The notes under the pieces were generated by a model. The model made no database searches. It worked only from the letters and a program-made list of their open reading frames with translations, and was not told where the DNA came from. 45,678 nt of DNA from IMG/VR virus record IMGVR_UViG_2663763326_000005. One strand, written 5' to 3'. This stretch comes from a virus. Its lineage: Duplodnaviria > Heunggongvirae > Uroviricota > Caudoviricetes. Every line of letters begins with the position of its first letter. The stretch's first letter is position 1. The position numbers were made by a program, and so were the translations under genes. This document shows, piece by piece, positions 12,868 through 44,546 of the stretch.

Positions 12868-13608
12868 TTAACTGGCGGTGACGGTGATTTCTGCAACCGC
12901 AGCAAACTCACCATTACCGGATACAACCGGAATGTTGACCTTGCCTGCAGCAACGCCGTTCACGGTGATGGTCATACCGCTGACCGACACGGTGGCTTTT
13001 GTTTTATCCGCAGACACCGCACGGAAGCTCTTGTCGGTTGCGCCCTCCGGCTGGAATGCCACGGTCAGCGTAGTGCTCTGCCCTTTCACTACGGAAGCAC
13101 TGGCGGGTGTCACCGTCATGCCGGTTGTCGCCGTCACCGTGCTGCGATCTTCTGCCATCGACGGACGTCCCACGTTGGTGACTTTCACCGTGCGGGTGAT
13201 CACTTCCTTCGCCGTCACCGCCTTACCGATACTGCTGACCCAGCCGCGGAACACATCGACCGTGCCGTTCGGGAAGCGGATTTTATAGGCACGGGTATCC
13301 CCTTCATTAAACCACGCCAGCAGCGCCTGCTGCCCCTGCTCTCCGGGCATCCACGCCAGCGTGAAGCTGGTATCTCCGGCAGATTTCTGCCCCTGCCCGG
13401 TCGCAGTCCAGTCCGCATCTTCATCATCGAGATAGCTGTCGTCATAGGACTCAGCGCTCAGTTCGCCGGGCGTCAGGTCTTTAACTTTAGCCAGACGCGA
13501 CCAGTCAACGTCTGAAAGCGGGTTCGCATAAGGGTCACCGTTCCCCTTATAAACCCACAGGGTGGTCCCGGCCCCTTTCACCGGCATTACTGGATTTGGT
13601 ACAGGCAT
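12868..13608 (-). CDS. V: major tail protein V
   Basis: From internal Met, [50 protein letters not shown].. matches lambda V, including a C-terminal Ig-like extension. Confidence 0.9.
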
Positions 13609-28541: not shown

Positions 28542-29573
28542 ATGAAAATTAACAAGATATTATCATCTGCAACACTATTGTATGGTATGTCAATGGCCAT
28601 GTCGGTCGGGAGTTGTGCAACACCTGTCCAGACTAATCTTCCTGGTTACACCCCGGGTGCAGATATCATTAGTGTTTCACCGACCAGAAACCAGGTCGAT
28701 CTCATTGGTGATGTTGTTTATTCCCAGATAAAAGGAACTCGTTCTGTCAGACAGCTTCACATGTCAGTTCTTGTCCCGCGAACAAATGATTTAAAACCAG
28801 CCATTATTTATTATCCCGGCGGCGGATTCATGTCTTCTGAACATGACAAATTTATTGAAATGAGAATGGCTCTGGCAGAAGCTGGTTTTGTTGTGGCCGC
28901 TGTAGAATACAGAACAATTCCTGATACATTTCCAGCACCAGTTGAGGATGGAAAAGCTGCAATACGTTACCTGAGAGAGCATGCCAGCAATTATGGGATT
29001 GATCCTCAAAGAATCGGAGTTCTGGGTGACTCTGCCGGTGGATGGCTTGCCCAGATGATGGGAACTACAAATGGTGACAAAACCTTTGATAAAGGTGACT
29101 TTCTTCAGCAATCCTCAGATGTTCAGGCAGTTGCCACACTTTATGGGATTTCTGACTTGTTGAATATTGGCGAGGGGTTCCCTGAATCAGTGCAGGAGGT
29201 TCATCGCTCTCCTGCCGTAACCGAAGCCTTAATGATCAATGGCCCTGCATTCAGAAATTTTGCGGGAGCCCCCATCACAGCGTCAAAAGAAAAAGCGCTA
29301 AACGCCAGTCCAATCGGACATATGAAAGGAGTAAAACCCCCATTTCTTATTATGCATGGTAGCAAAGACACTCTGGTTTCACCTGAGCAAAGCGCCAAAC
29401 TATTCAGGATGTTGAAGAAGAACGGTGATAACGCTGAGTACGTGCTGGTAGAAGGGGCCGAGCATGGCGATAAGACATGGTATCAGCCAATTATTATAAA
29501 CAGAGTCGTTGAGTGGTTTACTAAAAACCTGGGAGCGCCTATAAAAACAGCTCCCCAACAACAAAACCCGTAA
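28542..29573 (+). CDS. secreted alpha/beta-hydrolase (esterase/lipase-like), 3-prime end clipped by IS insertion
   Basis: Signal-peptide-like N-terminus MKINKILSSATLLYGMSMAMSVGSCA; oxyanion-hole-like YYPGGGF; nucleophile-elbow-like GDSAGG; later H/D candidates (HGSKDT, AEHGD). The stop TAA (29571-29573) lies inside the IS66 left end. Confidence 0.7.
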   Translation: MKINKILSSATLLYGMSMAMSVGSCATPVQTNLPGYTPGADIISVSPTRNQVDLIGDVVYSQIKGTRSVRQLHMSVLVPRTNDLKPAIIYYPGGGFMSSEHDKFIEMRMALAEAGFVVAAVEYRTIPDTFPAPVEDGKAAIRYLREHASNYGIDPQRIGVLGDSAGGWLAQMMGTTNGDKTFDKGDFLQQSSDVQAVATLYGISDLLNIGEGFPESVQEVHRSPAVTEALMINGPAFRNFAGAPITASKEKALNASPIGHMKGVKPPFLIMHGSKDTLVSPEQSAKLFRMLKKNGDNAEYVLVEGAEHGDKTWYQPIIINRVVEWFTKNLGAPIKTAPQQQNP

Positions 29574-29599
29574 GCGTCAACGGAGCACCGTATTGACGC

Positions 29600-31213
29600 T
29601 TATTTATTGGTGAGTACTACGTTCCATGGCAGGAGTTCGTCAACTCGGTTGGAAGGCCATTCCGGCAGTACGCTCAGGATATGGCGCAGATACGCTTCCG
29701 GATCGATACCGTTCAGACGGCAGGTGCCGATCAGCCCGTACAACAGTGCTCCACGCTCGCCGCCGTGATCGCTGCCAAAGAACATAAAGTTTTTCTTTCC
29801 GAGACAGACTGCACGAAGCGCTCTTTCCGCAGCATTATTATCCGCCTCCGCCAGACCGTCATCACTGTAATAACAGAGGGCATCCCACTGATTCAGTACA
29901 TAGCTGAACGCTTCGCCCAGTCTGGATTTTTTCGACAGCGTACCATTCTTCTCCACCATCCATTCATGCAGCGACGTCAGTAACACTTTGCTTCGCTGCT
30001 GCCTGACGGCAAGACGCTCTGACTCCGGTAATCCCCGTATTTCATCCTCGATGGCGTACAGTTCACTGATTCGCTTCAGGGCTTCTTCTGCCGTCGCACT
30101 TTTGCTGCTGATGTATACATCGTGGATTTTTCGCCGGGCATGGGCCCAGCACGCAACTTCTGTCAGTGCACCACCTTCACGTTCTGCACTGAACAACCTG
30201 TCGTAACCTGTGAACGCATCCGCCTGCAGGATACCCCGGAAGGGGCGGAGGTGTTGCTCCGGGTGTTTCCCCTGCCGGTTCGGCGAGTACGCGAACCAGA
30301 CCGCTGGAGGAGATGACGAACCCACATTGCGATCATCCCGGACATACGTCCAGATACGCCCTGTTTTCGCCTTTTTCTGACCCGGTGCCAGTACCTTTAC
30401 CGGTGTGTCATCAGTGTGAACCTTGCGGGTGTTCATTACATAACGGTACAGGGCATCATTCACCGGTGTCATTAACTGGCAGCACGCGTCAACCCAGTTG
30501 GAGAGTAAGGCCCGGCTCAGTTCGACACCCTGGCGGGCAAAGATTTCACTCTGACGATACAGTGGCAGATGTTCGCAGTATTTTCCCGTTAACACGCGGG
30601 CAAGTAATCCGGGGCCCGCGATACCACGCTCTATCGGGCGGGACGGCGCCGGTGCTTCAACAATACAGTCACATTTTGTACAGGCTTTTTTTACCCGTTC
30701 TGTGCGGATCACTTTCAGGGCACTGCTCACCAGTTCCAGCTGTTCAGCGCTGACTTCCCCCAGATAATCCAGCTCACCGCCACACTCCGGGCAACAGCTT
30801 TCTTCTGGCTCCAGGCGGTGTATTTCACGGGGAAGGTGTGCCGGTAACGGACGACGATGGCGCGACTGTCGCAACTGGCGGGGAACCTGAGGATCGTCTT
30901 CCCGCCCACTGTAACGATCGCTGTCCTGTTCACGTTGTTTCAGCAGAGCCTCAGCCAGTTCAACTTCACGACGCAGTTTTTCAGAACGGGTACCGAACAG
31001 CATCCGGCGCAGTTTTTCTATCTGAGCCCGCAGATGTTCTATTTCCCGTTCATCTTCTTCGATCTTTTCTTCGGCACGTGTCAGTGCAGAGCGCAGGAAG
31101 GCTTCCGTCTCTTCAACCAGACTCAGTTGCTGGTCTTTCTGACGGAGGGCTTCAGCCTGCTCAGAGAGCAACCTTTCCAGCTCTGCGATGCGAATGAGGT
31201 ATTTCTGACTCAT
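29600..31213 (-). CDS. IS66-family transposase (TnpC/Orf3)
   Basis: 537-aa ORF with N-terminal coiled-coil/leucine-zipper-like region, Cys cluster (CPECGGEL, CTKCDC) and DDE-type core typical of IS66 transposases. Confidence 0.85.
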   Translation of the reverse strand: MSQKYLIRIAELERLLSEQAEALRQKDQQLSLVEETEAFLRSALTRAEEKIEEDEREIEHLRAQIEKLRRMLFGTRSEKLRREVELAEALLKQREQDSDRYSGREDDPQVPRQLRQSRHRRPLPAHLPREIHRLEPEESCCPECGGELDYLGEVSAEQLELVSSALKVIRTERVKKACTKCDCIVEAPAPSRPIERGIAGPGLLARVLTGKYCEHLPLYRQSEIFARQGVELSRALLSNWVDACCQLMTPVNDALYRYVMNTRKVHTDDTPVKVLAPGQKKAKTGRIWTYVRDDRNVGSSSPPAVWFAYSPNRQGKHPEQHLRPFRGILQADAFTGYDRLFSAEREGGALTEVACWAHARRKIHDVYISSKSATAEEALKRISELYAIEDEIRGLPESERLAVRQQRSKVLLTSLHEWMVEKNGTLSKKSRLGEAFSYVLNQWDALCYYSDDGLAEADNNAAERALRAVCLGKKNFMFFGSDHGGERGALLYGLIGTCRLNGIDPEAYLRHILSVLPEWPSNRVDELLPWNVVLTNK

Positions 31214-31243
31214 GACCGTTTTTATAATGCGGTCAGGAGTTTT

Positions 31244-31594
31244 TTACAACATTGTCAGTGAGTTACGGCTGGATGTTTTTGGCTGACGCCAGTCCAGCTT
31301 ATCGAGGAGCATTGCCAGTTGCGAGCGGGTAATGGATACCTTGCCGTCACGTACCGCAGGCCAGATAAACTGGCCTTCCTCCAGGCGTTTGGTGAACAGG
31401 CACAGACCATCAGCATCAGCCCAAAGAATTTTGACGGTGTCACCCCGTCGGCCACGGAAGATAAACAGGTGACCGGAGAAGGGATTATCATTCAGCACAT
31501 GTTGTACCTGTTCTCCCAGTCCGTTGAAGGATTTACGCATATCGGTAACGCCGGCAACGAGCCAGATACGGGTACCTGATGGGAGTGAGATCAT
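31244..31594 (-). CDS. IS66-family accessory protein TnpB (Orf2)
   Basis: MISLPSGTRIWLVAGVTDMRKSFNGLGEQVQHVLNDNPFSGHLFIFRGRRGDTVKILWADADGLCLFTKRLEEGQFIWP; typical IS66 Orf2. Confidence 0.85.
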   Translation of the reverse strand: MISLPSGTRIWLVAGVTDMRKSFNGLGEQVQHVLNDNPFSGHLFIFRGRRGDTVKILWADADGLCLFTKRLEEGQFIWPAVRDGKVSITRSQLAMLLDKLDWRQPKTSSRNSLTML

Positions 31595-32016
31595 CTTCCC
31601 CTCCCGGTCAGTTCACGGATCAACACTGTGAGCAGCTCTGGCGATGGATTTTCCAGCGTCATGTTACCGTGACGGAATTCCACCTTGCAGGAACTGGCAC
31701 TGACTCTGGTCTGAGTGGAAGTGGATAAAGACGGCGCAATGGCCGCCACAGGTTCTTTCTGCTCATCCGGCGTTATTTCTACAGGTAATAATTCAACGCC
31801 AGTGTCAGAAGAGGTCGTTACCGGAAGACGCCGCGAAACACGCCCTTCGTTCTGCCAGAGCCTGAGCCATTTGAAAATAACATTATCATTGACGCCATTT
31901 TCACGTGCAATCTGTGCAACACAAGCTCCAGGTTGTGATGCCAGTTCCACCATACGAAGTTTGAATTCATTCGAATAGTTTTTACGAGGTTCTTTTCGCC
32001 AGTCCTGTAATTCCAT
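31591..32016 (-). CDS. IS66-family accessory protein TnpA (Orf1)
   Basis: 141-aa ORF with HTH-like segment (ASQPGACVAQIARENGVNDNVIFKWLRLW); overlaps TnpB start (ATGA). Confidence 0.8.
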   Translation of the reverse strand: MELQDWRKEPRKNYSNEFKLRMVELASQPGACVAQIARENGVNDNVIFKWLRLWQNEGRVSRRLPVTTSSDTGVELLPVEITPDEQKEPVAAIAPSLSTSTQTRVSASSCKVEFRHGNMTLENPSPELLTVLIRELTGRGR

Positions 32017-32130
32017 ACTTAGATGTCCGTCTATATCAGATGGGCGTCTAAGTTACCAATTCTCGTCTGATGGCTACATACGGCGGTCAGTTTACGCTTA
32101 CCAAAACCCAAACGCTAACCTGTAAAAAGA

Positions 32131-32149
32131 GGGAGGGCTAAGCCCTCCC
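32131..32149. terminator. bidirectional intrinsic terminator shared by the hydrolase (pre-insertion) and the adhesin gene
   Basis: GGGAGGGC-TAA-GCCCTCCC. On the minus strand it directly follows the adhesin stop and is followed by TCTTTTTAC; on plus it is followed by CATTCAATTTTG. Confidence 0.75.
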
Positions 32150-32161
32150 CATTCAATTTTG

Positions 32162-35100
32162 TTAACTATCCTTTTCAGGTAGTTTTACAACATAAGTCCT
32201 TATTGTTTTCTCATATGTATTTTTGCTATTCGTTATTTTGGCCTTAATCCAGTGATAACCACTTTCATAGGTGCTGAATTCCGAAGCTGCATTACCTGTC
32301 CAGTGTAACGTTACTGTAGCAGGCTCCATTTTGACCCGTTGAGAGTCTGGACTATCTTCACTACCAGCAGAAAACTCAACCGTACCAGATAATGGGTTTC
32401 CAAAATGATCGACAAATCGAGCATAAATACCTACTGGAGATCCATCGTTTGTCTCATAACCAGGATCTTTTGTTAGAGTCAATACTCCATTTGCGTCATC
32501 AGCGTACAGGGAGAATGATTTCACCGCGCTAACATCACTGCCAAGTTCGTTTAAGGTCGCCGTTAATTTATACGAACCAACCGTTCGACCATGTACGCTT
32601 ACCGTAGCCTGACCGTTCTCATCAGTCGTTACTGTGGTTTTATCAACCACCAACGCACCATATTTAGACGGCCCAGATGTCTTAACATTCAATGCTCGAC
32701 CACTTAATGCTTCGCCTGACTTACTTTTCAACAGTAACGTAAATACCAGATTGTTGGTATCGCTCACTACAGCCGAAGATGCAGATGATGTGATCTCCAA
32801 CACAGCCCCCTTCACATCCGTCACGGCATCAATATTCTGGCTTGCGGTTATGCGTTTCCCATCCAGAACATACTCGGCCTGAATTGTGTACTGGCCTGAT
32901 TTCGATGCAGTGAACTGCGTTGTTGCCTGTCCATGAGCATCCAGTTGCAGATTACTACTGGTCAATGATGCTCCCGTCGATGGTGTAATCGTTAAATCCA
33001 CCTCGCCTGTAAACGCATTGTTATTCGCATCAACCAACTGAATGTTTACTGTTGCGTTTTCACTGCCATCGGCCACAATCTCCTGTTTTGATACACTCAT
33101 ATTCAGTTCTGCAGAAGCAACATCGGGCACAAAAGTTAACTTAACGCTGCCAGATTCCACGCTATGGGAACCGTCAGTCACCCGTGCAGTCACCGTGTAC
33201 TCACCAGCTTTCACCGTTGTAAGCGGAACAGAAACATGCCCTGTTGAATCAGTCACGATATTTGTTGGTACAGATAATCCTTCAGATGAGGTGATGAGCT
33301 GAATCTTTTGCCCATTGACCGACGCATTCGTATTTGTCAGCTGCACATCTAATACCGCTGCATCCTTACCATTAGCAGGAATATTGGAAATTAAACTACT
33401 GCTTTCAGGCGTCAGTGACAGTGAAGCTCCGGTCATATTTGATGCAAAGGTCACTGTTAACTCAGTAGACATCTGAGAACCAGCATGAGCTGTAATCACG
33501 TAAGACCCCGGAGTGGAGCTTATTAACGCAAAAATAGCATTACCATTTTCGTCAGTTGAAACAGCATGTTCACCACCAACTTGAGTTATCCCTGCTGGTA
33601 AAGACAATGTGACAGCATAACCAGGAACAACATTGCCGAAACGGTCCGCAAGGCTTACAGTTACCATATTTCTCTGTTTTCCATCAGCCAATGCATTATT
33701 TTGGCTGGCTTCAAACTGAGAGAATGTAACCTGCTGCCGGTCCTCAATAAAGGTGATTTCTTTCTTAACACCTGAGAAATCATGACTATCAGATTTAACA
33801 CCGATAGTAATCTTACCAGCTCGTTTTGAAGTTACTGTCGCGCTATAGACACCGTCTTTTTCCGTTACAGTCCCAAACTCGACTCCTTCTGCCTGGTTAA
33901 GAGCATAAAAGCTCAGAGTGTTATCACCAGTGATTGCATTTCCTTGTGAATCCTTCACTGCCAGTTGTAGATTGATATTGTAACCAACTACCTGTTCTGC
34001 TGGTGCAGCGGTTAAAACAGCACTGACCTCAGAATCAGGTTCTGTTGTTGCTGTTTGCTTAATACTGAGAGTAAATGTTTTTCCCTGAACTTTTGCAGTT
34101 ACACGTACCGTACCAGCCTGCGAACCAGCAGCCAGAACAGAGCGATATACCCCAGCAGAGATTTCCTCTACCGCGCCTAATGACGGAGCAGTTACCGTTT
34201 CACGCTGTCGAGCACTATTGCTATCTGCTGTAAATTCCACTGACATTTCAATGTCATCAGCCAGTCCGGTTAATGCCTTACCGTTACTATCTTTCAGGCT
34301 TAATACTATCGGATAAGTGGATTGGCTATCAGCAGAGATCGTCGGCGACGAATCTCCATCCAGTGTAAAAGACGAATCAGCTGTCGATACATCACTATCA
34401 GTAATGGCTGCCTGCTTAATATTCAGAGTAAAGGTTTTTCCCTGAACTTTTGCAGTTACACGTACCGTACCAGCCTGCGAACCAGCAGCCAGAACAGAGC
34501 GATATACACCAGCAGAGATTTCCTCTACCGCGCCTAATGACGGAGCAGTTACCGTTTCACGCTGTCGAGCACTATTGCTATCTGCTGTAAATTCCACTGA
34601 CATTTCAATGTCATCAGCCAGTCCGGTTAATGCCTTACCGTTACTATCTTTCAGGCTTAATACTATCGGATAAGTGGATTGGCTATCAGCAGAGATCGTC
34701 GGCGACGAATCTCCATCCAGTGTAAAAGACGAATCAGCTGTCGATACATCACTATCAGTAATGGCTGCCTGCTTAATATTCAGAGTAAAGGTTTTTCCCT
34801 GAACTTTTGCAGTTACACGTACCGTACCAGCCTGCGAACCAGCAGTCAGAACAGAGCGATATACCCCAGCAGAGATTTCCTCTACCGCGCCTAATGACGG
34901 AGCAGTTACCGTTTCACGCTGTCGAGCACTATTGCTATCTGCTGTAAATTCCACTGACATTTCAATGTCATCAGCCAGTCCGGTTAATGCCTTACCGTTA
35001 CTATCTTTCAGGCTTAATACTATCGGATAAGTGGATTGGCTATCAGCAGAGATTGTCGGCGACGAATCTCCATCCAGTGTAAAAGACGAATCAGCCGTCG

Positions 35101-36427
35101 AGACACCACTATCAGTAACGCTAATATTCATCACGGCATAGTTGGAAACGTTGCCTCTGTTATCCTGTACTGTGGCTCCAACATTCCACGAATTTACACC
35201 TTCGCTTTTATAAGCCGGTAAAGTGATCTGCCATGATGTGCCATTTCCACTGATCTTGCCGCCAGCCGCAGTGAATGCACTATCATTCCACTGTACAGAC
35301 TTGATACCACCACTAGCATTGTTGATTGTCAGTGTTACAGGGATGATTGATTCCCCCTCCCCCTGAACAGACTCTGGCAAACTGATTTTCAGTGCATGCT
35401 TCTTCTTGTACTCCAGAACAATGTTGTTATTTCGTTCAACAAAATCATAACGCCGGTTCTGGACTTCTCGCATAACTGCAACATTATCGCTGCTAAGCTG
35501 TTCAGCCAAGGAAACGCCCGGGCGATAATTAAACTCAACACCAAAGGTTGTATCGTGAGTGTTGCTCTGTCCTTGCTTATGCTGTGCAGAAAACTTAATC
35601 AGAGGAACTGGTGTATAAGAAATTCCCCCAGTAACTGCGTAAGGGTTTTCCTGCAGGTTATCGCTTCCAAATAACCCGACATTTTTACCATAATATTTTT
35701 CAAACTGAATAGATGCCCCTAATTGCGGATAAGCAGGTAGCCATCCTTCAGCAGAAAAATCCCAGCCATTTGCAGGTCTTTCCAGATAATCATCAATATC
35801 ACGACTGTTCTTCCAGTCAGATAGACCAAAATAGGTATTTACACCAAGCCTGAAATAATCCCTCCAGTACTCAACCCCAAAACCTGCACGAGAGTGACTA
35901 CGACTTAAATCGTAATCATAGAAAACATTCGCACCCAACATTGCGTTATCAGGAGTGAAATGACGAATCCCCAAACCAATATTGGTCTGATTTCGGTCAT
36001 CAGTACGATGTAGTGATGTCTGACTGAATAACACATAATCCTGAGTATCCAGCCATGGATATAAAAAGTCGAATGATGAATCCTTCAAGGAAAAAGAATC
36101 ATCGACATTAAGCTTGATGCGCGCATTGCCATATTGTTGCAACCAGTCGACGACCTCTTTTGTCGCCTGAGTTGATAAAGTATTTACAGCAAAACTACTT
36201 GCATTATTATTCGCCAGGCTCTGACCTGCACTTGCTGCAAATGAGGCCACTTTATTTGCATGCTCATCGCTGGCATAAATTTGCGTAACATCTTTATTAC
36301 CAGATGATGCAAAACTGTTTGCTGGGATCAAAGAAAGAGAAACTGGAGATAATATCTGGGTAACAATTACCGACCATGTAATCGCGCCAGATGCAGTTTT
36401 TTTTAACTTTTTATTCACAGTGGTCAT
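32162..36427 (-). CDS. inverse autotransporter adhesin (intimin/invasin family), 1421 aa, with Ig-like repeats
   Basis: N-terminal signal/anchor, then a beta-barrel-like region (DFLYPWLDTQDYVLFSQTSLHRTDDRNQTNIGLGIRHF.., GFGVEYWRDYFRLGVNTYF, EGWLPAYPQLGASIQFEKYYG), then a long series of Ig-like passenger repeats including three near-identical 119-aa units. AT-rich upstream region. Confidence 0.8.
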   Translation of the reverse strand: MTTVNKKLKKTASGAITWSVIVTQILSPVSLSLIPANSFASSGNKDVTQIYASDEHANKVASFAASAGQSLANNNASSFAVNTLSTQATKEVVDWLQQYGNARIKLNVDDSFSLKDSSFDFLYPWLDTQDYVLFSQTSLHRTDDRNQTNIGLGIRHFTPDNAMLGANVFYDYDLSRSHSRAGFGVEYWRDYFRLGVNTYFGLSDWKNSRDIDDYLERPANGWDFSAEGWLPAYPQLGASIQFEKYYGKNVGLFGSDNLQENPYAVTGGISYTPVPLIKFSAQHKQGQSNTHDTTFGVEFNYRPGVSLAEQLSSDNVAVMREVQNRRYDFVERNNNIVLEYKKKHALKISLPESVQGEGESIIPVTLTINNASGGIKSVQWNDSAFTAAGGKISGNGTSWQITLPAYKSEGVNSWNVGATVQDNRGNVSNYAVMNISVTDSGVSTADSSFTLDGDSSPTISADSQSTYPIVLSLKDSNGKALTGLADDIEMSVEFTADSNSARQRETVTAPSLGAVEEISAGVYRSVLTAGSQAGTVRVTAKVQGKTFTLNIKQAAITDSDVSTADSSFTLDGDSSPTISADSQSTYPIVLSLKDSNGKALTGLADDIEMSVEFTADSNSARQRETVTAPSLGAVEEISAGVYRSVLAAGSQAGTVRVTAKVQGKTFTLNIKQAAITDSDVSTADSSFTLDGDSSPTISADSQSTYPIVLSLKDSNGKALTGLADDIEMSVEFTADSNSARQRETVTAPSLGAVEEISAGVYRSVLAAGSQAGTVRVTAKVQGKTFTLSIKQTATTEPDSEVSAVLTAAPAEQVVGYNINLQLAVKDSQGNAITGDNTLSFYALNQAEGVEFGTVTEKDGVYSATVTSKRAGKITIGVKSDSHDFSGVKKEITFIEDRQQVTFSQFEASQNNALADGKQRNMVTVSLADRFGNVVPGYAVTLSLPAGITQVGGEHAVSTDENGNAIFALISSTPGSYVITAHAGSQMSTELTVTFASNMTGASLSLTPESSSLISNIPANGKDAAVLDVQLTNTNASVNGQKIQLITSSEGLSVPTNIVTDSTGHVSVPLTTVKAGEYTVTARVTDGSHSVESGSVKLTFVPDVASAELNMSVSKQEIVADGSENATVNIQLVDANNNAFTGEVDLTITPSTGASLTSSNLQLDAHGQATTQFTASKSGQYTIQAEYVLDGKRITASQNIDAVTDVKGAVLEITSSASSAVVSDTNNLVFTLLLKSKSGEALSGRALNVKTSGPSKYGALVVDKTTVTTDENGQATVSVHGRTVGSYKLTATLNELGSDVSAVKSFSLYADDANGVLTLTKDPGYETNDGSPVGIYARFVDHFGNPLSGTVEFSAGSEDSPDSQRVKMEPATVTLHWTGNAASEFSTYESGYHWIKAKITNSKNTYEKTIRTYVVKLPEKDS
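34050..35120. repeat. three near-perfect direct tandem repeats of 357 bp inside the adhesin gene
   Basis: The same string (e.g. gcttaat.. at 34057, 34414, 34771) recurs with a 357-bp period. It encodes DSGVSTADSSFTLDGDSSPTISADSQSTYPIVLSLKDSNGKALTGLADDIEMSVEFTADSNSARQRETVTAPSLGAVEEISAGVYRSVL.. three times and produces identical spurious plus-strand ORFs at 34322, 34679 and 35036. Confidence 0.9.
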
Positions 36428-37378: not shown

Positions 37379-38394
37379 AGATCCACCCCGTAAATCCAGT
37401 CTGTGTTTGTCAGGTCGAGTTTTGGTTTGCTAGCTGTCACGCCTGCCTGTTGCTTGTTACGGTTGATTTCGAGTTGGGTCCACTTGTCGCGGAGTTTGGC
37501 CGGACTTAGCACGTTACCGGACCAGAAGTTGTCCTGGCATGCCCAGCGGAACAGCACGCACATGTCGCGGTGGTTACGTCCGTCACGTTCACGCATCAGG
37601 CGGATATCGTTAGCCCACCCTGCAAAATTCGGTTTTCTGGCTGATGGCGCGATGGTCTTCACCATGTCAAACATCCACTCTGCGGCGGTCAGGTCTTCTG
37701 CTGTCCCCCACTTGCTGCCGCTCTGAATTGCAGCATCCGGTTTCACCACAGGAAGATCGTTTTCTGGTTGGTCAGAGGATTCGCCAGAATTCTCGGACGA
37801 AAAAGGTTTTATATTGTCTTTTGTTAGTTTGTCTTTTGTGTTTACCTGATTCGGGTAAACGCCTTTACCTGATTTGGGTAAACTTTTTTTACCTGATTCA
37901 GGTAAATTTACCTCTTTCAGGTAAACTTTATTTTTCTTACCTGATTCGGGTAATGTTGACCATTCACTGACCACATTATTAATGCCGGTATTCCGCCCGC
38001 TCTGAATAAAAATCCCACGCTTTACCAGAACACTTTTTGCAGCAGAACACTTGTGCGGCAATATCCCGGTTAATTCGGAAAGTTGCTCGTTGCTAACCCA
38101 ATCCAGTTTTTTATTAAAGCCATATGTTTTGCGCATGACAGCCAGAAAGACCAGAAGCTGGTGCTGTGTTAATCCGGCCAGCATCACAGCTTCCAGCAAC
38201 TCATTTGCAATGCGCGTATAACCATCATCGAGATCTGCCACGCGCGGCTCCTTTTGTGCCGCATCCGGCACTGGAAAATTGAATATCTCAGCAGTGTTTG
38301 CCATAATTCCTCCCGCAATGAGTGTGTTACGATTTGCACCTGAAAGTCGGTTCTGTTCCAGCAGACCGGCTTTCGCCATTTCTGAACCTGTCAT
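37375..38394 (-). CDS. O: replication initiator O-like protein (origin-binding)
   Basis: Lambda-O-like N-terminal domain (ADLDDGYTRIANELLEAVMLAGLTQHQLLVFLAVMRKTYGFNK), iterons inside the coding sequence, stop overlaps the P start. Confidence 0.8.
   Translation of the reverse strand: MTGSEMAKAGLLEQNRLSGANRNTLIAGGIMANTAEIFNFPVPDAAQKEPRVADLDDGYTRIANELLEAVMLAGLTQHQLLVFLAVMRKTYGFNKKLDWVSNEQLSELTGILPHKCSAAKSVLVKRGIFIQSGRNTGINNVVSEWSTLPESGKKNKVYLKEVNLPESGKKSLPKSGKGVYPNQVNTKDKLTKDNIKPFSSENSGESSDQPENDLPVVKPDAAIQSGSKWGTAEDLTAAEWMFDMVKTIAPSARKPNFAGWANDIRLMRERDGRNHRDMCVLFRWACQDNFWSGNVLSPAKLRDKWTQLEINRNKQQAGVTASKPKLDLTNTDWIYGVDL
37842..37954. repeat. replication origin iterons (5 x 17-bp TTACC..GGTAA) with adjacent AT-rich tract
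   Basis: TTACCTGATTCGGGTAA (37842), TTACCTGATTTGGGTAA (37865), TTACCTGATTCAGGTAA (37889), TTACCTCTTTCAGGTAA (37908), TTACCTGATTCGGGTAA (37938); AT-rich 37801-37841. Confidence 0.8.
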
Positions 38395-38930
38395 ATCGCC
38401 CCCAGCATGGTAGTAACCATCGCCATCAATGGACCAGCCAGATCTGGGTCCACACGAAACATCGACACAATACCTTCACTAATTTCCTTCAGTTTCTGGT
38501 GGCGTGGTGCGTTGAGAATGACAGCCTGTTTTGCCTCACTGAGTTCCTTTTCCATTTCAGCCAACCTAGCCATGAAGCTATCCTGCTCAACCAGGTAACC
38601 GCGATATTCCAGCGGTAGTACCGCCAGAATTGCCGGGGTCAGTTCACGCACGTTATTTCGGTATTTTTCAGAATCGAATTTGTTATCGAGGAAGCGGAAC
38701 AGCTTCTGGCGTGCACGGCTGACATCATCAGGGAAATCGATGGTGCCGCCGCCCTGCTCCAGATACTCATTCACAATGAGTGTGGCAACGACATCCTGAT
38801 TATCTACAGCCGACCAGGCGCGGACGGCATCACGGATTTTTTCGTGGCCTGGCACCTGTTTTGTTTGAGAACGATTTATCACCGCAGTCGGGCTAAATCC
38901 GCTAGTCTGTTGGTATGTAAGTGGTTGCAT
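38391..38930 (-). CDS. putative CII-like regulatory protein (179 aa) between cro and O
   Basis: Position between cro and O, stop overlapping the O start (ATGA). Sequence not lambda cII; assignment is by position and a vague resemblance to CII-like prophage regulators. Confidence 0.35.
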   Translation of the reverse strand: MQPLTYQQTSGFSPTAVINRSQTKQVPGHEKIRDAVRAWSAVDNQDVVATLIVNEYLEQGGGTIDFPDDVSRARQKLFRFLDNKFDSEKYRNNVRELTPAILAVLPLEYRGYLVEQDSFMARLAEMEKELSEAKQAVILNAPRHQKLKEISEGIVSMFRVDPDLAGPLMAMVTTMLGAI

Positions 38931-38999
38931 AATTGACTCCTTTAGTTTGAATTGACTGTTAAGTTGATTGCTTATTGTTAAAGAGCGTGAAATGGAAAT

Positions 39000-39230
39000 T
39001 TAAGCTGCGTTCTTTTCGGTGTGTGGAAACAACTTCGGAAGATCCGGGCGAATCTGGTATGCCTTCACTACTCCACCAGTAGCCGTAACAATGCTGCCGA
39101 CATGTTCAGGGGATACCTTTGCTTTGTTGTGAAGCCACTTATAGACGGCCTGCTGTGAAACTTCGCAAGCAGCGCCCAGTTTCTTTTGTGAACCAACGAT
39201 ATTGATCGCTGTTTTGATAGCTGGGTTCAT
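39000..39230 (-). CDS. cro: Cro-like repressor (small HTH protein)
   Basis: 76-aa ORF divergent from cI with an HTH-like segment (QKKLGAACEVSQQAVYKWLHNK) and GGAGG RBS at 39236-39240. Confidence 0.75.
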   Translation of the reverse strand: MNPAIKTAINIVGSQKKLGAACEVSQQAVYKWLHNKAKVSPEHVGSIVTATGGVVKAYQIRPDLPKLFPHTEKNAA

Positions 39231-39334
39231 AACAACCTCCGTGGTTAATTTGAATCAAGATTAAAACTATGGTTGTTTTTAGTCAACAACCATTTTCGTT
39301 TGATGGAATAAAACCTTGGTTGTACATTTGGACT
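39231..39334. promoter_or_regulatory. OR operator / divergent PR and PRM promoter region
   Basis: Palindrome ATGGTTGTT-TTTAGTC-AACAACCAT (39269-39293) plus further AACAACC/GGTTGT half-sites. Candidate PR on minus: TTGACT (39281-39286), 17 bp, TAATCT (39258-39263). Candidate PRM on plus: TTGATG (39300-39305), 17 bp, TACATT (39323-39328), with cI ATG at 39335 (leaderless-like). Confidence 0.6.
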
Positions 39335-40024
39335 ATGAAAACAACACTCTCAGAAAGACTTAAAGAAGCCAGATTAGCGCGAGGCCTTACACAAAAGGCG
39401 CTTGGGGATTTGGTCGGGGTTAGCCAGGCTGCTATTCAGAAAATCGAAACAGGGAAAGCTAATCAAACAACTAAAATCGTGGAGATCGCGAACGCTTTGG
39501 GTGTGCGCGCAGAATGGTTATCTTCTGGCGTTGGAAATATGTCAGACAGTACAGTGCAACCAATACAATCAACTGTCAGCCATTCCAAATACTTCAAGAT
39601 TGACGTTCTTGATATAGAAGTCAGTGCTGGGCCGGGAGTCATCAACCGTGAGTTTGTAGAAGTTCTACGCTCGGTTGAGTACTCGTTTGACGATGCTCGT
39701 CACATGTTCGATGGTAGGAAGGCGGAAAATATCCGCATCATTAACGTGCGTGGTGACAGCATGTCAGGAACGATCGAACCAGGTGATCTGCTGTTCGTTG
39801 ATATCACAGTTAAATCTTTCGACGGTGATGGTATCTATGCGTTTCTGTACGACGACACAGCCCATGTAAAGCGCCTGCAAATGATGAAGGATAAGCTGCT
39901 GGTCATCTCTGATAACAAAAGCTACTCACCGTGGGACCCGATCGAGAAAGACGAGATGAACCGGGTGTTCATCTTCGGTAAGGTTATTGGGAGCATGCCG
40001 CAGACATATAGGAAGCATGGGTAG
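39335..40024 (+). CDS. cI: CI-type prophage repressor (HTH plus LexA/S24-like autocleavage domain)
   Basis: MKTTLSERLKEARLARGLTQKALGDLVGVSQAAIQKIETGKANQTTKIVEIANALGV (HTH) and a C-terminal S24-like domain (VRGDSMSGTIEPGDLLFVD..AHVKRL). Confidence 0.85.
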   Translation: MKTTLSERLKEARLARGLTQKALGDLVGVSQAAIQKIETGKANQTTKIVEIANALGVRAEWLSSGVGNMSDSTVQPIQSTVSHSKYFKIDVLDIEVSAGPGVINREFVEVLRSVEYSFDDARHMFDGRKAENIRIINVRGDSMSGTIEPGDLLFVDITVKSFDGDGIYAFLYDDTAHVKRLQMMKDKLLVISDNKSYSPWDPIEKDEMNRVFIFGKVIGSMPQTYRKHG

Positions 40025-40145
40025 TACCAATTAAAAATTATCAACTGGGCATTGTGCTCATTCAGTAAAGAACTAATTCCTATCTTTGCTCTAGGTAGTA
40101 ATATTAAGCCACCGCAATAATATCTTTACCTAACGGCGTAAGAAT

Positions 40146-40172
40146 CCCGGTCACCGTGCCGGGTTTTCTTTT
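40146..40172 (+). terminator. intrinsic terminator downstream of cI
   Basis: CCCGG-TCACCGTG-CCGGG followed by TTTTCTTTT. Confidence 0.6.
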
Positions 40173-40286
40173 GCCCTCCCCTCATCACACACACCGTTAA
40201 AAAAACCACCATAACCTCGCTTCAGTTATCGCTATGCGATTCAAGTCACAAAATAAATCCATCCTAAATACAACCAGTTATATCTA

Positions 40287-40345
40287 AAACAACCAATAAA
40301 ACAACTTTTGTTGTTGACGATAAAACAACTATAGTTTTAAATAAG
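40287..40345 (+). promoter_or_regulatory. candidate OL operators / PL promoter
   Basis: Repeated AAAACAAC motifs (40287, 40299, 40322) and inverted GTTGTT (40310-40315) share the OR half-site. TTGACG (40314-40319), 17 bp, TTAAAT (40337-40342) is oriented toward gam-bet-exo. Confidence 0.5.
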
Positions 40346-40346
40346 T

Positions 40347-40489
40347 TCATCGCAACAACACAACGATACGGCAACTACCTGATTCACCGTTGCGATGACC
40401 GCTTAGATCCGCAGTTTGAATTTCAGCAGGCTTCGGGGAGTGCGAGGGGTGAAACGGACGCGTGAACGTCGGTGTGACCAGCTGAAATT
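40347..40489 (+). promoter_or_regulatory. two consecutive long-range inverted repeats in the predicted PL leader (candidate structured RNA: nut- or put-like)
   Basis: TCATCGCAAC (40347-40356) pairs with GTTGCGATGA (40389-40398). AATTTCAGC (40419-40427) pairs with GCTGAAATT (40481-40489); its loop holds GACG-CGTGAA-CGTC (40457-40470). Confidence 0.35.
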
Positions 40490-40535
40490 AACTCAACATT
40501 TCATACCTTAGTCGCTTCAACGAGGCGGCTTAGTT

Positions 40536-40826
40536 ATGACAACCGGCGGCCATCCACCGCCTGAATACGCGCAGAAGTCTCTATATGTTCAGCAGCCCAG
40601 CTTACGGGCAGGAGTTTTTATGGTTCATCAACATTACGGAACGCAGACCGTTAATCGCGGTGCGGTCATGCCAGGAATGCTGGTCAAACACAAAGATGGT
40701 ACCTGGACTGCATCAGCTAATTTACGCGGACGGCTTTATCTGCATCGCGGCATCGAGCGCACTTATACCCGTGATTTGCTCGTGGAAGTTTTTCTCGACG
40801 GACGCGGCAACGGCCTGAATCACTAA
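40536..40826 (+). CDS. hypothetical protein (96 aa) at the N-gene position
   Basis: First ORF downstream of the candidate PL, upstream of gam; no arginine-rich N-like motif; GAGG about 10 nt upstream. Confidence 0.4.
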
Positions 40827-40901
40827 TCCCCTTTCCTGTTTACCTAATCAGCCCGGCATTTCGCAGGCGATATTTTCACAGCCATTTTCAGGAGTTCAGC
40901 C

Positions 40902-41198
40902 ATGAACGCTTATTACATTCAGGATCGTCTTGAGGCTCAAAGCTGGGCGCGTCACTACCAGCAGATCGCCCGTGAAGAGAAAGAGGCAGAACTGGCAGAC
41001 GACATGGAAAAAGGTCTTCCACAGCACCTGTTTGAATCACTCTGCATCGATCATTTGCAACGCTGCGGGGCCAGCAAAAAAGCCATTACCCGTGCGTTTG
41101 ATGACGATGTTGAGTTTCAGGAGCGCATGGCAGAACACATCCGGTACATGGTTGAAACCATTGCTCACCACCATGTTGATATTGATTCAGAGGTATAA
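40902..41198 (+). CDS. gam: Gam (RecBCD inhibitor), short GamS-like form
   Basis: [98 protein letters not shown] matches lambda Gam; no in-frame upstream ATG for a long form. Confidence 0.9.
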
Positions 41199-41203
41199 AA
41201 CGG

Positions 41204-41989
41204 ATGAGTACAGCACTCGCAACGCTGGCTGGGAAGCTGGCTGAACGTGTCGGCATGGATTCTGTCGACCCACAGGAACTGATCACCACTCTTCGTCAGA
41301 CGGCATTTAAAGGTGATGCCAGCGATGCGCAGTTCATCGCATTGCTGATCGTCGCCAACCAGTACGGCCTTAATCCGTGGACGAAAGAAATTTACGCCTT
41401 CCCTGATAAGCAGAACGGCATCGTTCCGGTGGTGGGCGTTGATGGCTGGTCCCGCATCATCAATGAAAACCAGCAGTTTGATGGCATGGACTTTGAGCAG
41501 GACAATGAATCATGTACGTGCCGGATTTACCGCAAAGACCGCAATCATCCGATCTGCGTTACCGAATGGATGGATGAATGCCGCCGCGAACCATTCAAAA
41601 CTCGCGAAGGCAGAGAAATCACGGGGCCGTGGCAGTCGCATCCCAAACGGATGTTACGGCATAAAGCCATGATTCAGTGTGCCCGTCTGGCCTTCGGATT
41701 TGCTGGTATCTATGACAAGGATGAAGCCGAGCGCATTGTCGAAAATACTGCATACACTGCGGAACGTCAGCCGGAACGCGACATCACTCCGGTTAACGAT
41801 GAAACCATGCAGGAGATTAACACTCTGCTGATTGCCCTGGACAAAACATGGGATGACGACTTATTGCCGCTCTGTTCCCAGATATTTCGCCGCGACATTC
41901 GCGCATCGTCAGAACTGACACAGGCCGAAGCAGTGAAAGCTCTTGGATTCCTGAAACAGAAAGCCACTGAGCAGAAGGTGGCAGCATGA
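41204..41989 (+). CDS. bet: Bet (Red-beta single-strand annealing protein)
   Basis: [72 protein letters not shown]..; 261 aa. Confidence 0.9.
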
Positions 41990-42666
41990 CACCGGACATT
42001 ATCCTGCAGCGTACCGGGATCGACGTGAGAGCTGTCGAACAGGGGGATGATGCATGGCACAAATTACGGCTCGGCGTCATCACCGCTTCAGAAGTTCACA
42101 ACGTGATAGCAAAGCCCCGCTCAGGAAAGAAGTGGCCTGACATGAAAATGTCCTACTTCCACACCCTGCTGGCTGAGGTTTGCACCGGTGTGGCTCCGGA
42201 AGTTAATGCTAAGGCGCTGGCGTGGGGAAAACAGTACGAGAACGACGCCAGAACCCTGTTTGAATTCACTTCCGGCGTGAATGTTACTGAATCCCCGATC
42301 ATCTATCGCGACGAAAGTATGCGCACCGCCTGCTCTCCCGATGGTTTATGCAGTGACGGCAATGGCCTTGAGCTGAAATGCCCGTTTACCTCCCGGGATT
42401 TCATGAAGTTCCGGCTCGGTGGTTTCGAGGCCATAAAGTCGGCTTACATGGCCCAGGTGCAGTACAGCATGTGGGTGACACGAAAAGATGCCTGGTACTT
42501 TGCCAACTATGACCCACGAATGAAGCGTGAAGGCCTGCATTATGTCGTGGTTGAGCGGGATGAAAAGTACATGGCGAGTTTTGACGAGATGGTGCCGGAG
42601 TTCATCGAAAAAATGGACGAAGCACTGGCTGAAATTGGTTTTGTATTTGGAGAGCAATGGCGATGA
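41986..42666 (+). CDS. exo: Exo (Red-alpha 5-prime to 3-prime exonuclease)
   Basis: [69 protein letters not shown]..; 226 aa. Confidence 0.9.
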
Positions 42667-43301: not shown

Positions 43302-43399
43302 ACATGAAAAGCAAAATTATCAGGGAGCTACAGGCTCCTTTTTTATTGTTCGCATTCACCCTCAAGCGTATTAACCAACAGTTCAGGGATTAATGAAAG

Positions 43400-44309: not shown

Positions 44310-44546
44310 ATGTCTCGACTAATCACTTTACAGGACTGGGCTAAAGAAGAATTTGGGGACTTAGCACCAAGTGAGCGAGTTCTGAAAAAATACGCGCAAG
44401 GGAAAATGATGGCCCCACCCGCTATAAAAGTTGGTCGCTACTGGATGATTGACCGAAATTCCCGTTTTGTAGGAACGCTTGCAGAACCGCAACTCCCAAT
44501 AAACGCAAACCCAAAACTCCAAAGGATAATCGCTGATGGCTGCTAG
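44310..44546 (+). CDS. excisionase-like protein (Xis)
   Basis: 78-aa ORF immediately upstream of and overlapping int; N-terminus MSRLITLQDWAKEE resembles the Xis LTLQEWA motif; AGAGGAGG RBS. Confidence 0.65.
   Translation: MSRLITLQDWAKEEFGDLAPSERVLKKYAQGKMMAPPAIKVGRYWMIDRNSRFVGTLAEPQLPINANPKLQRIIADGC

Follow-up and report, generated by a model that had tools for sequence, protein, structure and literature searches.

A candidate structured leader RNA between the left early promoter and kil in a widespread, N-less lineage of lambda-like Escherichia coli prophages

The stretch of DNA analysed here (the window; IMG/VR record IMGVR_UViG_2663763326_000005, 45,678 nucleotides (nt), whose numbering is used throughout) is a lambda-like prophage of the DLP12 or 'Bievrevirus' kind. 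Its nearest sequenced phages, PhiR34_1 and Turner, are 99% identical to it across 39000-41200, and their annotation is likewise without an N gene. The subject of this study is the leader (40349-40619) that separates the left early promoter, PL, from kil, and that holds two long inverted repeats (IR1 and IR2) followed by two further hairpins (3 and 4). The leader appears to be noncoding, and it is put forward tentatively as a structured 5' part of the PL messenger RNA (mRNA) which may act in cis, by stabilising the 5' end and by shielding the transcript from Rho, in a lineage without N and without the terminator tL1. The features from the end of cI into the left operon are as follows.

40146-40163, + strand: cI terminator, upstream of PL.
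40285-40329, + strand: operator-like repeats of the left operator (OL), with TAAAACAAC three times (at 40285, 40297 and 40321) and AACAAC/GTTGTT palindromes, overlapping PL.
40314-40342, + strand: PL promoter as read from the sequence, -35 TTGACG at 40314-19, 17-nt spacer, -10 TTAAAT at 40337-42.
40347-56/40389-98, + strand: IR1 as a DNA repeat, 10/10 perfect, 32 nt apart.
40349-40396, + strand: IR1 as RNA, an 8-bp stem of AUCGCAAC (40349-56) and GUUGCGAU (40389-96) around a C/A-rich loop of 32 nt, starting at the putative first transcribed base (+1).
40419-30/40478-89, + strand: IR2 repeat, 11/12 matched (9 perfect), 47 nt apart.
40419-40489, + strand: IR2 domain, 71 nt, predicted to be Y-shaped, closing stem 40419-27/40481-89, extendable to 40430/40478 across an A.A mismatch.
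40431-40449, + strand: predicted inner hairpin A of IR2, G-rich.
40452-40475, + strand: predicted inner hairpin B of IR2, core GACG-CGUGAA-CGUC at 40457-70.
40490-40500, + strand: variable spacer, where the shared downstream module is joined; of the terminator T-run of relatives it keeps TTT alone.
40501-40540, + strand: hairpin 3, 16 pairs, repeat core 40510-18/40522-30, burying GAGG (40522-25) and the AUG at 40536.
40545-40561, + strand: hairpin 4, GGCGG-CCAUCCA-CCGCC, nearly invariant (nucleotide diversity, pi, 0.001).
40620-40826, + strand: kil, 68 amino acids (aa), FtsZ-inhibitor family (phrog_294, E=1e-37), opens the PL operon; its ATG lies 7 nt after AGGAG.
40902-42666, + strand: gam, bet and exo, directly after kil.

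The hexamers of PL that had been proposed in a preliminary description of this DNA (TTGACG-17-TTAAAT) are borne out by the sequence. A consensus promoter scan did not list PL, since TTAAAT lacks the A at position 2. The assignment is nevertheless supported by the three operator repeats, by the cI terminator upstream, by a homology that starts 7 nt past the -10 hexamer, and by promoters in the same register in other immunity classes. Operator half-sites of OL are also present at the right operator, OR (39269-39293). In 80 viral contigs that encode an identical Kil, three immunity classes can be told apart by the upstream DNA. The second class is homologous to this prophage from 40349/40350 onward and the third from 40383 onward, and the other classes have promoters of their own, TTGATA-17-TATCAT or TTGACT-17-TATTGT. 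Leader and kil therefore appear to form a recombination module. From promoter geometry and the homology breakpoint we infer that PL transcription starts at about A40349, and since the homology between immunity classes starts at this very base, the leader would be exchanged as a transcribed module. A minus-strand promoter-like pair, TTGCGA-16-TATAGT (40355-40328), was rejected, as one such pair was found where 3.3 are expected by chance.

The two consecutive long-range repeats reported earlier behind PL are real. When 40343-40535 was shuffled 1000 times with dinucleotides preserved, a perfect stem of 10 bp or more had P=0.008, and no shuffle contained two consecutive stems of 9 bp or more (0/1000); therefore, IR1 and IR2 together exceed chance. 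The hairpin noted earlier inside the second repeat is also found, as the core of inner hairpin B.

Coding potential was assessed from segregating sites, which are distributed over the three codon positions as 7, 4 and 5 in the leader, compared with 20, 14 and 44 in gam and 0, 0 and 16 in kil. Since there is no excess at the third position, a noncoding leader is supported. The TAG stop at 40509 is CAG in 46 of 69 relatives, which opens the frame into kil; this common polymorphism accounts for over-long 'Kil' annotations in some phage records, and, together with the missing third-position bias, it led to the rejection of an N-terminally extended Kil. An arginine-rich open reading frame (ORF) of 31 codons (40416-40511, MNFSRLRGVRGVKRTRERRCDQLK...) overlaps IR2 and resembles the arginine-rich motif of N. 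It was rejected as a mini-N or arginine-rich peptide, being without N homology and without third-position bias, and having a polymorphic stop.

The earlier statement that no N-like ORF follows PL holds: the genes right behind the leader are those of Kil, Gam, Bet and Exo, and none of 20 early ORFs matched an N family in PHROGs. It had also been suggested that the leader contains a weak boxA-like string, CGCTTAGAT, and might be a divergent nut site with an unrecognised partner. Such a site could be used by an N-like protein of this phage or of a co-resident prophage, and its position, which is that of nutL, as well as the basic ORF over IR2, would agree with this. A true boxA in the PR transcript also makes Nus recruitment plausible on the right side:

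38986-38975, - strand: consensus boxA GCUCUUUAACAA in the PR transcript, 12 nt past the cro stop (the nutR position).

However, no match to GCTCTTTAACAA (the CGCUCUUA or GCUCUUUAACAA type of boxA) was found in 40343-40620 within 3 mismatches, so that CGCTTAGAT is not a boxA; no boxB-type hairpin with a purine-rich loop occurs in the leader, or after CGCTTAGAT or the PR boxA; and no partner protein was found, the basic ORF lacking N homology and a coding signature and being interrupted or extended by the TAG/CAG site. The divergent nut is thus largely refuted, and its probability is regarded as very small. The PR boxA itself is matched 12/12 nowhere else in 45.7 kb and is limited to this immunity class, 4A7 and HK639 having a plain hairpin there; it suggests either a relic of nutR or antitermination by host Nus factors (rrn-type).

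The appearance of a genuine nut site behind a related start is illustrated by a Citrobacter meridianamericanus prophage (L105), in which, at 893-1330, the same +1 hairpin is followed by a textbook nutL and a P22-type N ORF. Its nutL consists of boxA GCUCAUUAACAA (GCTCATTAACAA) and the boxB hairpin CCUCAGAAUCUGAGG (CCTCAGAATCTGAGG), and its N starts with MNRNQARRLAAFNAKK and ends with ...ALYAAGHRKSGQITAR. The first 35 nt of the leader studied here align with L105 with a score of 29, which none of 200 shuffles reached. Comparable +1 hairpins open the leaders of L090, L091, L094, L103, phi80 and HK639. In Silvania, Enterobacter and Kluyvera the hairpin is AUCGACAAC...CACCGUUGUC, in phi80, HK225 and HK639 it is AUCGA...UCGAU, and AUCG...CACCGUUG hairpins are seen repeatedly in PL leaders from other genera. 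Since they occur across the PL family, including the N-bearing L105, IR1 appears to be the local form of a family-wide 5'-terminal hairpin and not an analogue of put or nut. In immunity class C, the 28 loop nt beside the 5' arm are replaced by unrelated sequence of identical length, and the first eight transcribed bases are AUUGCAUC, seven of which still pair with the IR1 3' arm. Positions 40383-40404 are almost invariant (pi 0.004).

The IR1 loop also bears on a different idea, namely that the leader is a platform or precursor for riboregulation, with Hfq and GcvB acting on the IR1 loop, CsrA acting on GGA, or a stable small RNA (sRNA) tuning kil or host targets. The loop contains CAACAACACAAC (40353-64), which is complementary over all 12 nt to the GcvB R1 seed (GcvB nt 72-83). 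GcvB-pairing prophage RNAs are known (AgvB; PMC4104026), GGA and GGAG motifs lie in predicted loops, and a toxic kil would gain from tight control. However, the window has four places with a 12-mer complementary to GcvB, so that the match is not significant and is probably due to chance, and the site is absent from class C leaders. Furthermore, no Rfam sRNA matched the leader, there is no terminator to release an sRNA, and PL is repressed in lysogens; riboregulation is accordingly held to be improbable. An AgvB-like anti-sRNA was rejected, as AgvB maps downstream of PR' and not at PL.

In contrast to IR1, which has counterparts across the family, IR2 appears to be confined to this lineage of E. 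coli prophages. The homologue hunt covered 50,697 phage records, 5,426 complete E. coli genomes, 80 viral kil loci and 25 kil loci of other species from GTDB. The IR2 region (40399-40500) was found in 2251 copies in 2210 of the 5426 E. coli genomes (about 41%), all at least 90% identical. Among the phage records, distant blastn searches returned IR2 relatives in this lineage only, and nhmmer gave no match in the 25 GTDB loci. None of the 2251 copies carries an annotation of the IR2 region, and a full-text literature search gave no published mention of the leader sequences. At third codon positions, nucleotide diversity is 0.047-0.087; the spacer 40490-40500 has 0.083, IR2 0.029 and the IR1 3' arm 0.004. 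As IR2 is at about half the synonymous level, there is some constraint on the leader, strongest outside IR2. The polymorphisms at 40425 (A/G), 40454 (A/G) and 40455 (C/U) keep their pairs as G.U, and one variant, 40428 A>U (L022), repairs the A.A mismatch of the closing stem. Overall, most changes within stems turn A-U into G.U or C-G into U.G, by which pairing is kept on the + strand RNA only. The IR2 fold is therefore plausible as a model.

The same data can be read in the opposite direction, with IR2 as an evolutionary scar or hitchhiker at the junction where nutL-N-tL1 was lost, conserved since the module is young and recombines as a block. The leader (95-100% identity) is not better conserved than the kil, gam and bet DNA beside it. 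Two common polymorphisms disrupt the predicted IR2 pairs 40419/40489 and 40433/40445. The stop/sense change at 40509 is tolerated, as are copy-number changes of CTCAA, the ensemble probability of IR2 is low, and no homologue was found beyond E. coli prophages in the collections searched. Yet a random junction would not be expected to contain tandem long inverted repeats, which the shuffles did not produce, and the reduced diversity of IR2, the much lower value of the IR1 3' arm, the pairing retained by most stem polymorphisms and the repaired mismatch in L022 speak for more than a scar. This origin is considered unlikely. Just 3' of the IR2 stem, at 40488-40498, the copy number of CTCAA/TCAAC varies (2 or 3) among near-identical prophages.

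Downstream of IR2, the leader joins a module (40499-40567) that is shared widely and comprises hairpins 3 and 4. The module is also present in phi80 (behind the 'N' gene), in HK225 and HK639, and in prophages of Citrobacter, Enterobacter and Huaxiibacter, a set that includes different types of antitermination, with copies at L001 2498-2567, L002 2996-3065 and L006 33111-33180 (- strand) and in L102, L107 and L109-L111. In 12 sequences from several kinds of lambdoid phages, 90% of the cells of hairpin 3 are paired and four pairs have compensatory changes; the covariation score is 0.126, compared with 0.084 in shuffles, of which 1 in 500 scored as high. Hairpin 3 is thus the only part of the leader with structural support across lineages. 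L108 carries GCGG-CUAUCCAA-CCGC at the place of hairpin 4. The peptide read from the AUG at 40536 is not conserved (MTTGGHPPP... here, MKRLSNRN... in L108), whereas the hairpin is, and hairpin 3 is therefore taken as an RNA feature.

In all the phages listed for this module, a strong intrinsic terminator directly precedes it, with a T-run that continues into 'CATACC'. This tL1-type terminator lies directly before 'TTTCATACC' in phi80, HK225, HK639, L102, L107 and L109-L111. In the present lineage no terminator hairpin precedes hairpin 3. After their +1 hairpin, relatives have either nutL, N and the terminator, or put followed by genes and terminators; here the same place is occupied by IR2. 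Loss of the terminator is expected if the lineage did not acquire antitermination. The simplest reading of these alignments is that the lineage became independent of N for kil-gam-bet-exo through loss of tL1. In many prophages of other genera, too, PL leads directly to kil with no N between them, and the leader can be as short as about 70 nt (L090, L091 and L095), so that N-less early-left expression needs no large RNA element.

The proposed function of the leader can be potentially described as follows. In this lineage the nutL-N-tL1 cassette of related phages would have been replaced by about 150 nt of RNA, which would work in cis on the transcript that carries it and would involve no processive antitermination. 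The IR1 stem, formed from the first transcribed base, may protect the mRNA against 5'-end-dependent decay. IR2 and hairpins 3 and 4 would keep most of the 270-nt untranslated leader paired, leaving little free C-rich RNA for Rho before kil is translated. With the strong terminator before hairpin 3 gone, kil-gam-bet-exo could be expressed without N. The conserved hairpin 3/4 module may have a translational or processing role. The stability and Rho-shielding roles, as well as folding in vivo, are inferred.

Several results weigh against this proposal. Folding of the leader, suggested earlier as a check, predicted the stems and inner hairpins, and each domain alone is more stable than shuffles (z about -2.3; IR1 -2.4, IR2 -2.3), as is hairpin 3 (z=-3.2, pair probability >0.9 in every context folded). 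However, the leader as a whole is not more stable than shuffles (z=-0.55 / -0.24), and in context the IR1 and IR2 stems reach an ensemble probability of only ~0.35-0.45. The IR2 pair probability, 0.94 alone, is 0.04-0.46 in context and 0.04 when the kil sequence is added. The proposed check on conservation and covariance likewise gave a divided answer, for the leader is conserved but IR1 and IR2 have no double compensatory changes across the copies, which diverge too little to show covariation; about 10 changes keep a pair as wobble and about 5 break one, a difference short of significance. With its many C residues (C/G 1.75) and its predicted open state, the IR1 loop resembles a Rho entry site more than a shield. 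A 71-nt Y-shaped domain is also more elaborate than shielding requires. Finally, an intact terminator is shared with N-dependent phages farther down the operon:

43322-43340, + strand: intrinsic-terminator-like hairpin with U-run inside the PL operon, between an orf61-like ORF and a dksA-like gene, before xis and int.

This hairpin is identical in the N-dependent lambda h434 imm21 and in the N-less PhiR34_1, and 4A7 is one base off, at the stem foot. Lambda tL3 maps in this neighbourhood.

The preliminary description had compared the leader with the put sites of HK022. In part the comparison stands, since the phage is N-less, the repeats are real and they lie at the position of nutL and put; kinship to put does not. 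A covariance model (R1) was built from 32 distinct putL/putR sequences that were taken from viral contigs by a degenerate pattern, and 11 of its 14 pairs covary. R1 scored HK022 putL at 95 bits, HK022 putR at 63 bits and HK639 putL at 89 bits. In the whole window, with filters off, its best match had 10.9 bits (E=0.35) and lay inside a structural gene (13212-13276); in 40287-40640 there was no match at E up to 10. Phi80, HK225, 4A7 and eleven other PL-kil loci were negative. By this model, membership of the leader in the put family is rejected. A scan of 38000-42000 against Rfam 15 (E up to 10) gave matches outside the leader only; Rfam is without a put family and HK022 itself gives no Rfam match. 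The string 'CAGCAG..UGCGAGGGG..CGG' seemed to resemble stem three of the put region in HK639, but the local alignment is no better than shuffles, and the likeness was dismissed. No matching element was found downstream of PR by sequence or by R1, which is a weak criterion as the put of HK639 is also on the left only. Statements on HK639 rest on its GenBank annotation and on R1. The HK639 record (L006 37910-37969) also has an 'M3-like RNA' annotated just after the CII-like gene; the equivalent place here has no intergenic space, as the cII-like gene and O overlap.

It may still be asked whether IR2, with or without IR1, is a new cis-acting RNA for processive antitermination, non-homologous to put but analogous to it and replacing N in the left operon. 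IR2 lies at about +70 to +140 behind a +1 hairpin, where L105 has nutL and HK639 its put-like RNA, and with HK639 as precedent the missing PR copy is not decisive. The domain is ~70 nt long, multi-helix, purine-rich, under some constraint and extremely widespread, the hairpin before xis and int is intact, and surveys of lambdoid phages speculate that N-less members use 'put-like RNA' (PMC12315714). Two other N-less leaders, of Leclercia and Citrobacter youngae (L089, ~2330-2440; L097, ~2262-2372), also carry a different Y-shaped element of ~100 nt with a closing stem CCACC/GGUGG and compensatory inner hairpins (CCGG..CCGG in one, CCGAC..GUCGG in the other), which may be another structured RNA at the same position. 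Against this, the leader has no similarity to put in sequence or structure, and IR2 is predicted as a closed three-way junction instead of two tandem hairpins. The IR2 fold is unstable in context and without covariation, N-less relatives manage with ~70-nt leaders, and the tL1-type terminator that the put-bearing HK639 has kept is lost here. Antitermination by IR2 therefore seems doubtful. Its stronger form, in which IR2, possibly with the +1 hairpin, would be a third unrelated class of cis RNA that makes E. coli polymerase terminator-resistant and carries it past 43322-43340 for xis and int, is judged a little more doubtful still. A stabilising and Rho-shielding leader is thus retained as the tentative proposal.

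A long hairpin, GUGAGCUUCGCGGUGGUG ... CACCACCAGCGAAGUUCAC, lies directly before the kil ribosome-binding site, ~130 nt upstream of kil, in L088, L092, L094, L096 and L097 (Citrobacter and Kluyvera).

The remaining features of the neighbourhood are listed below.

39269-40024, + strand: cI, LexA-type, helix-turn-helix plus S24.
39230-39000, - strand: cro.
44310-44546, + strand: xis.
From 44536, + strand: int.
36427-32162, - strand: inverse-autotransporter/invasin-like gene, 1421 aa, with three near-identical Ig-like repeats; strong terminator at 32150-32130.
32016-29600, - strand: IS66-type element.
28542-29573, + strand, opposite to the PR operon: esterase gene.

Between exo and xis, the + strand carries lambda-like small ORFs and the dksA-like gene. 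Beyond cro, the - strand encodes a 179-aa CII-like protein, O and P, and farther on ninB, HNH, rusA and Q. The PR operon holds several inserted elements between P and ninB (28542-36427), and these would obstruct PR transcription toward Q.

In a very common E. coli lineage, the PL leader is without N, nut and put, and has instead a conserved, unannotated, structured RNA of 150 nt, with the first terminator missing. The element at 40349-40500 is defined, short and experimentally tractable. If it is only a stabilising leader, the result is an ordinary one, yet it corrects the over-long 'Kil' annotations and explains N-independence by terminator loss; if it should confer read-through, it would be a new class of RNA antiterminator in the best-studied bacterium.

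Among known systems, nutL and N of the lambda type share the location in the PL leader, and L105 has boxA, boxB and a P22-type N there; unlike these, the leader studied here has none of the three, and the sole boxA is on the PR side. With respect to rrn-type boxA/Nus antitermination, the exact consensus boxA is found in the PR transcript and not in the PL leader, and it stands there without boxB and without N.

The put RNA suppresses downstream terminators in cis through the beta' zinc-binding domain (PMC9378689). The leader shares with HK022 and HK639 the setting of an N-less lambdoid phage with a ~70-nt multi-helix element early in the PL transcript, and with HK639 also the position behind an AUCGA...UCGAU +1 hairpin and the restriction to the left operon. 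However, the put signature (CGAACGGCxCG ... GUCGG ... GGCG(G/U)G ... CAAU) is absent, as is the core formed by stem I with its CGAACGGCxCG loop, GUCGG, and a stem II closing on GGCG...CAAU. Put consists of two (in HK639 three) tandem stem-loops of ~70 nt without a closing helix, whereas IR2 is predicted to be closed by one, and the nearby terminator that put reads through is missing here.

The EAR RNA of Bacillus eps operons is a cis-acting RNA for processive antitermination. Should IR2 be an antiterminator, its mechanism would be of this kind, although the two are unrelated in sequence and structure and Rfam gave no match in the leader. 5'-terminal hairpins, such as that of the ompA 5' untranslated region, protect mRNA from 5'-end-dependent decay. 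With these stabilisers the PL leader shares a stem at or next to the first transcribed nucleotide and a long leader, and it differs from them in the unusually long IR1 loop of 32 nt.

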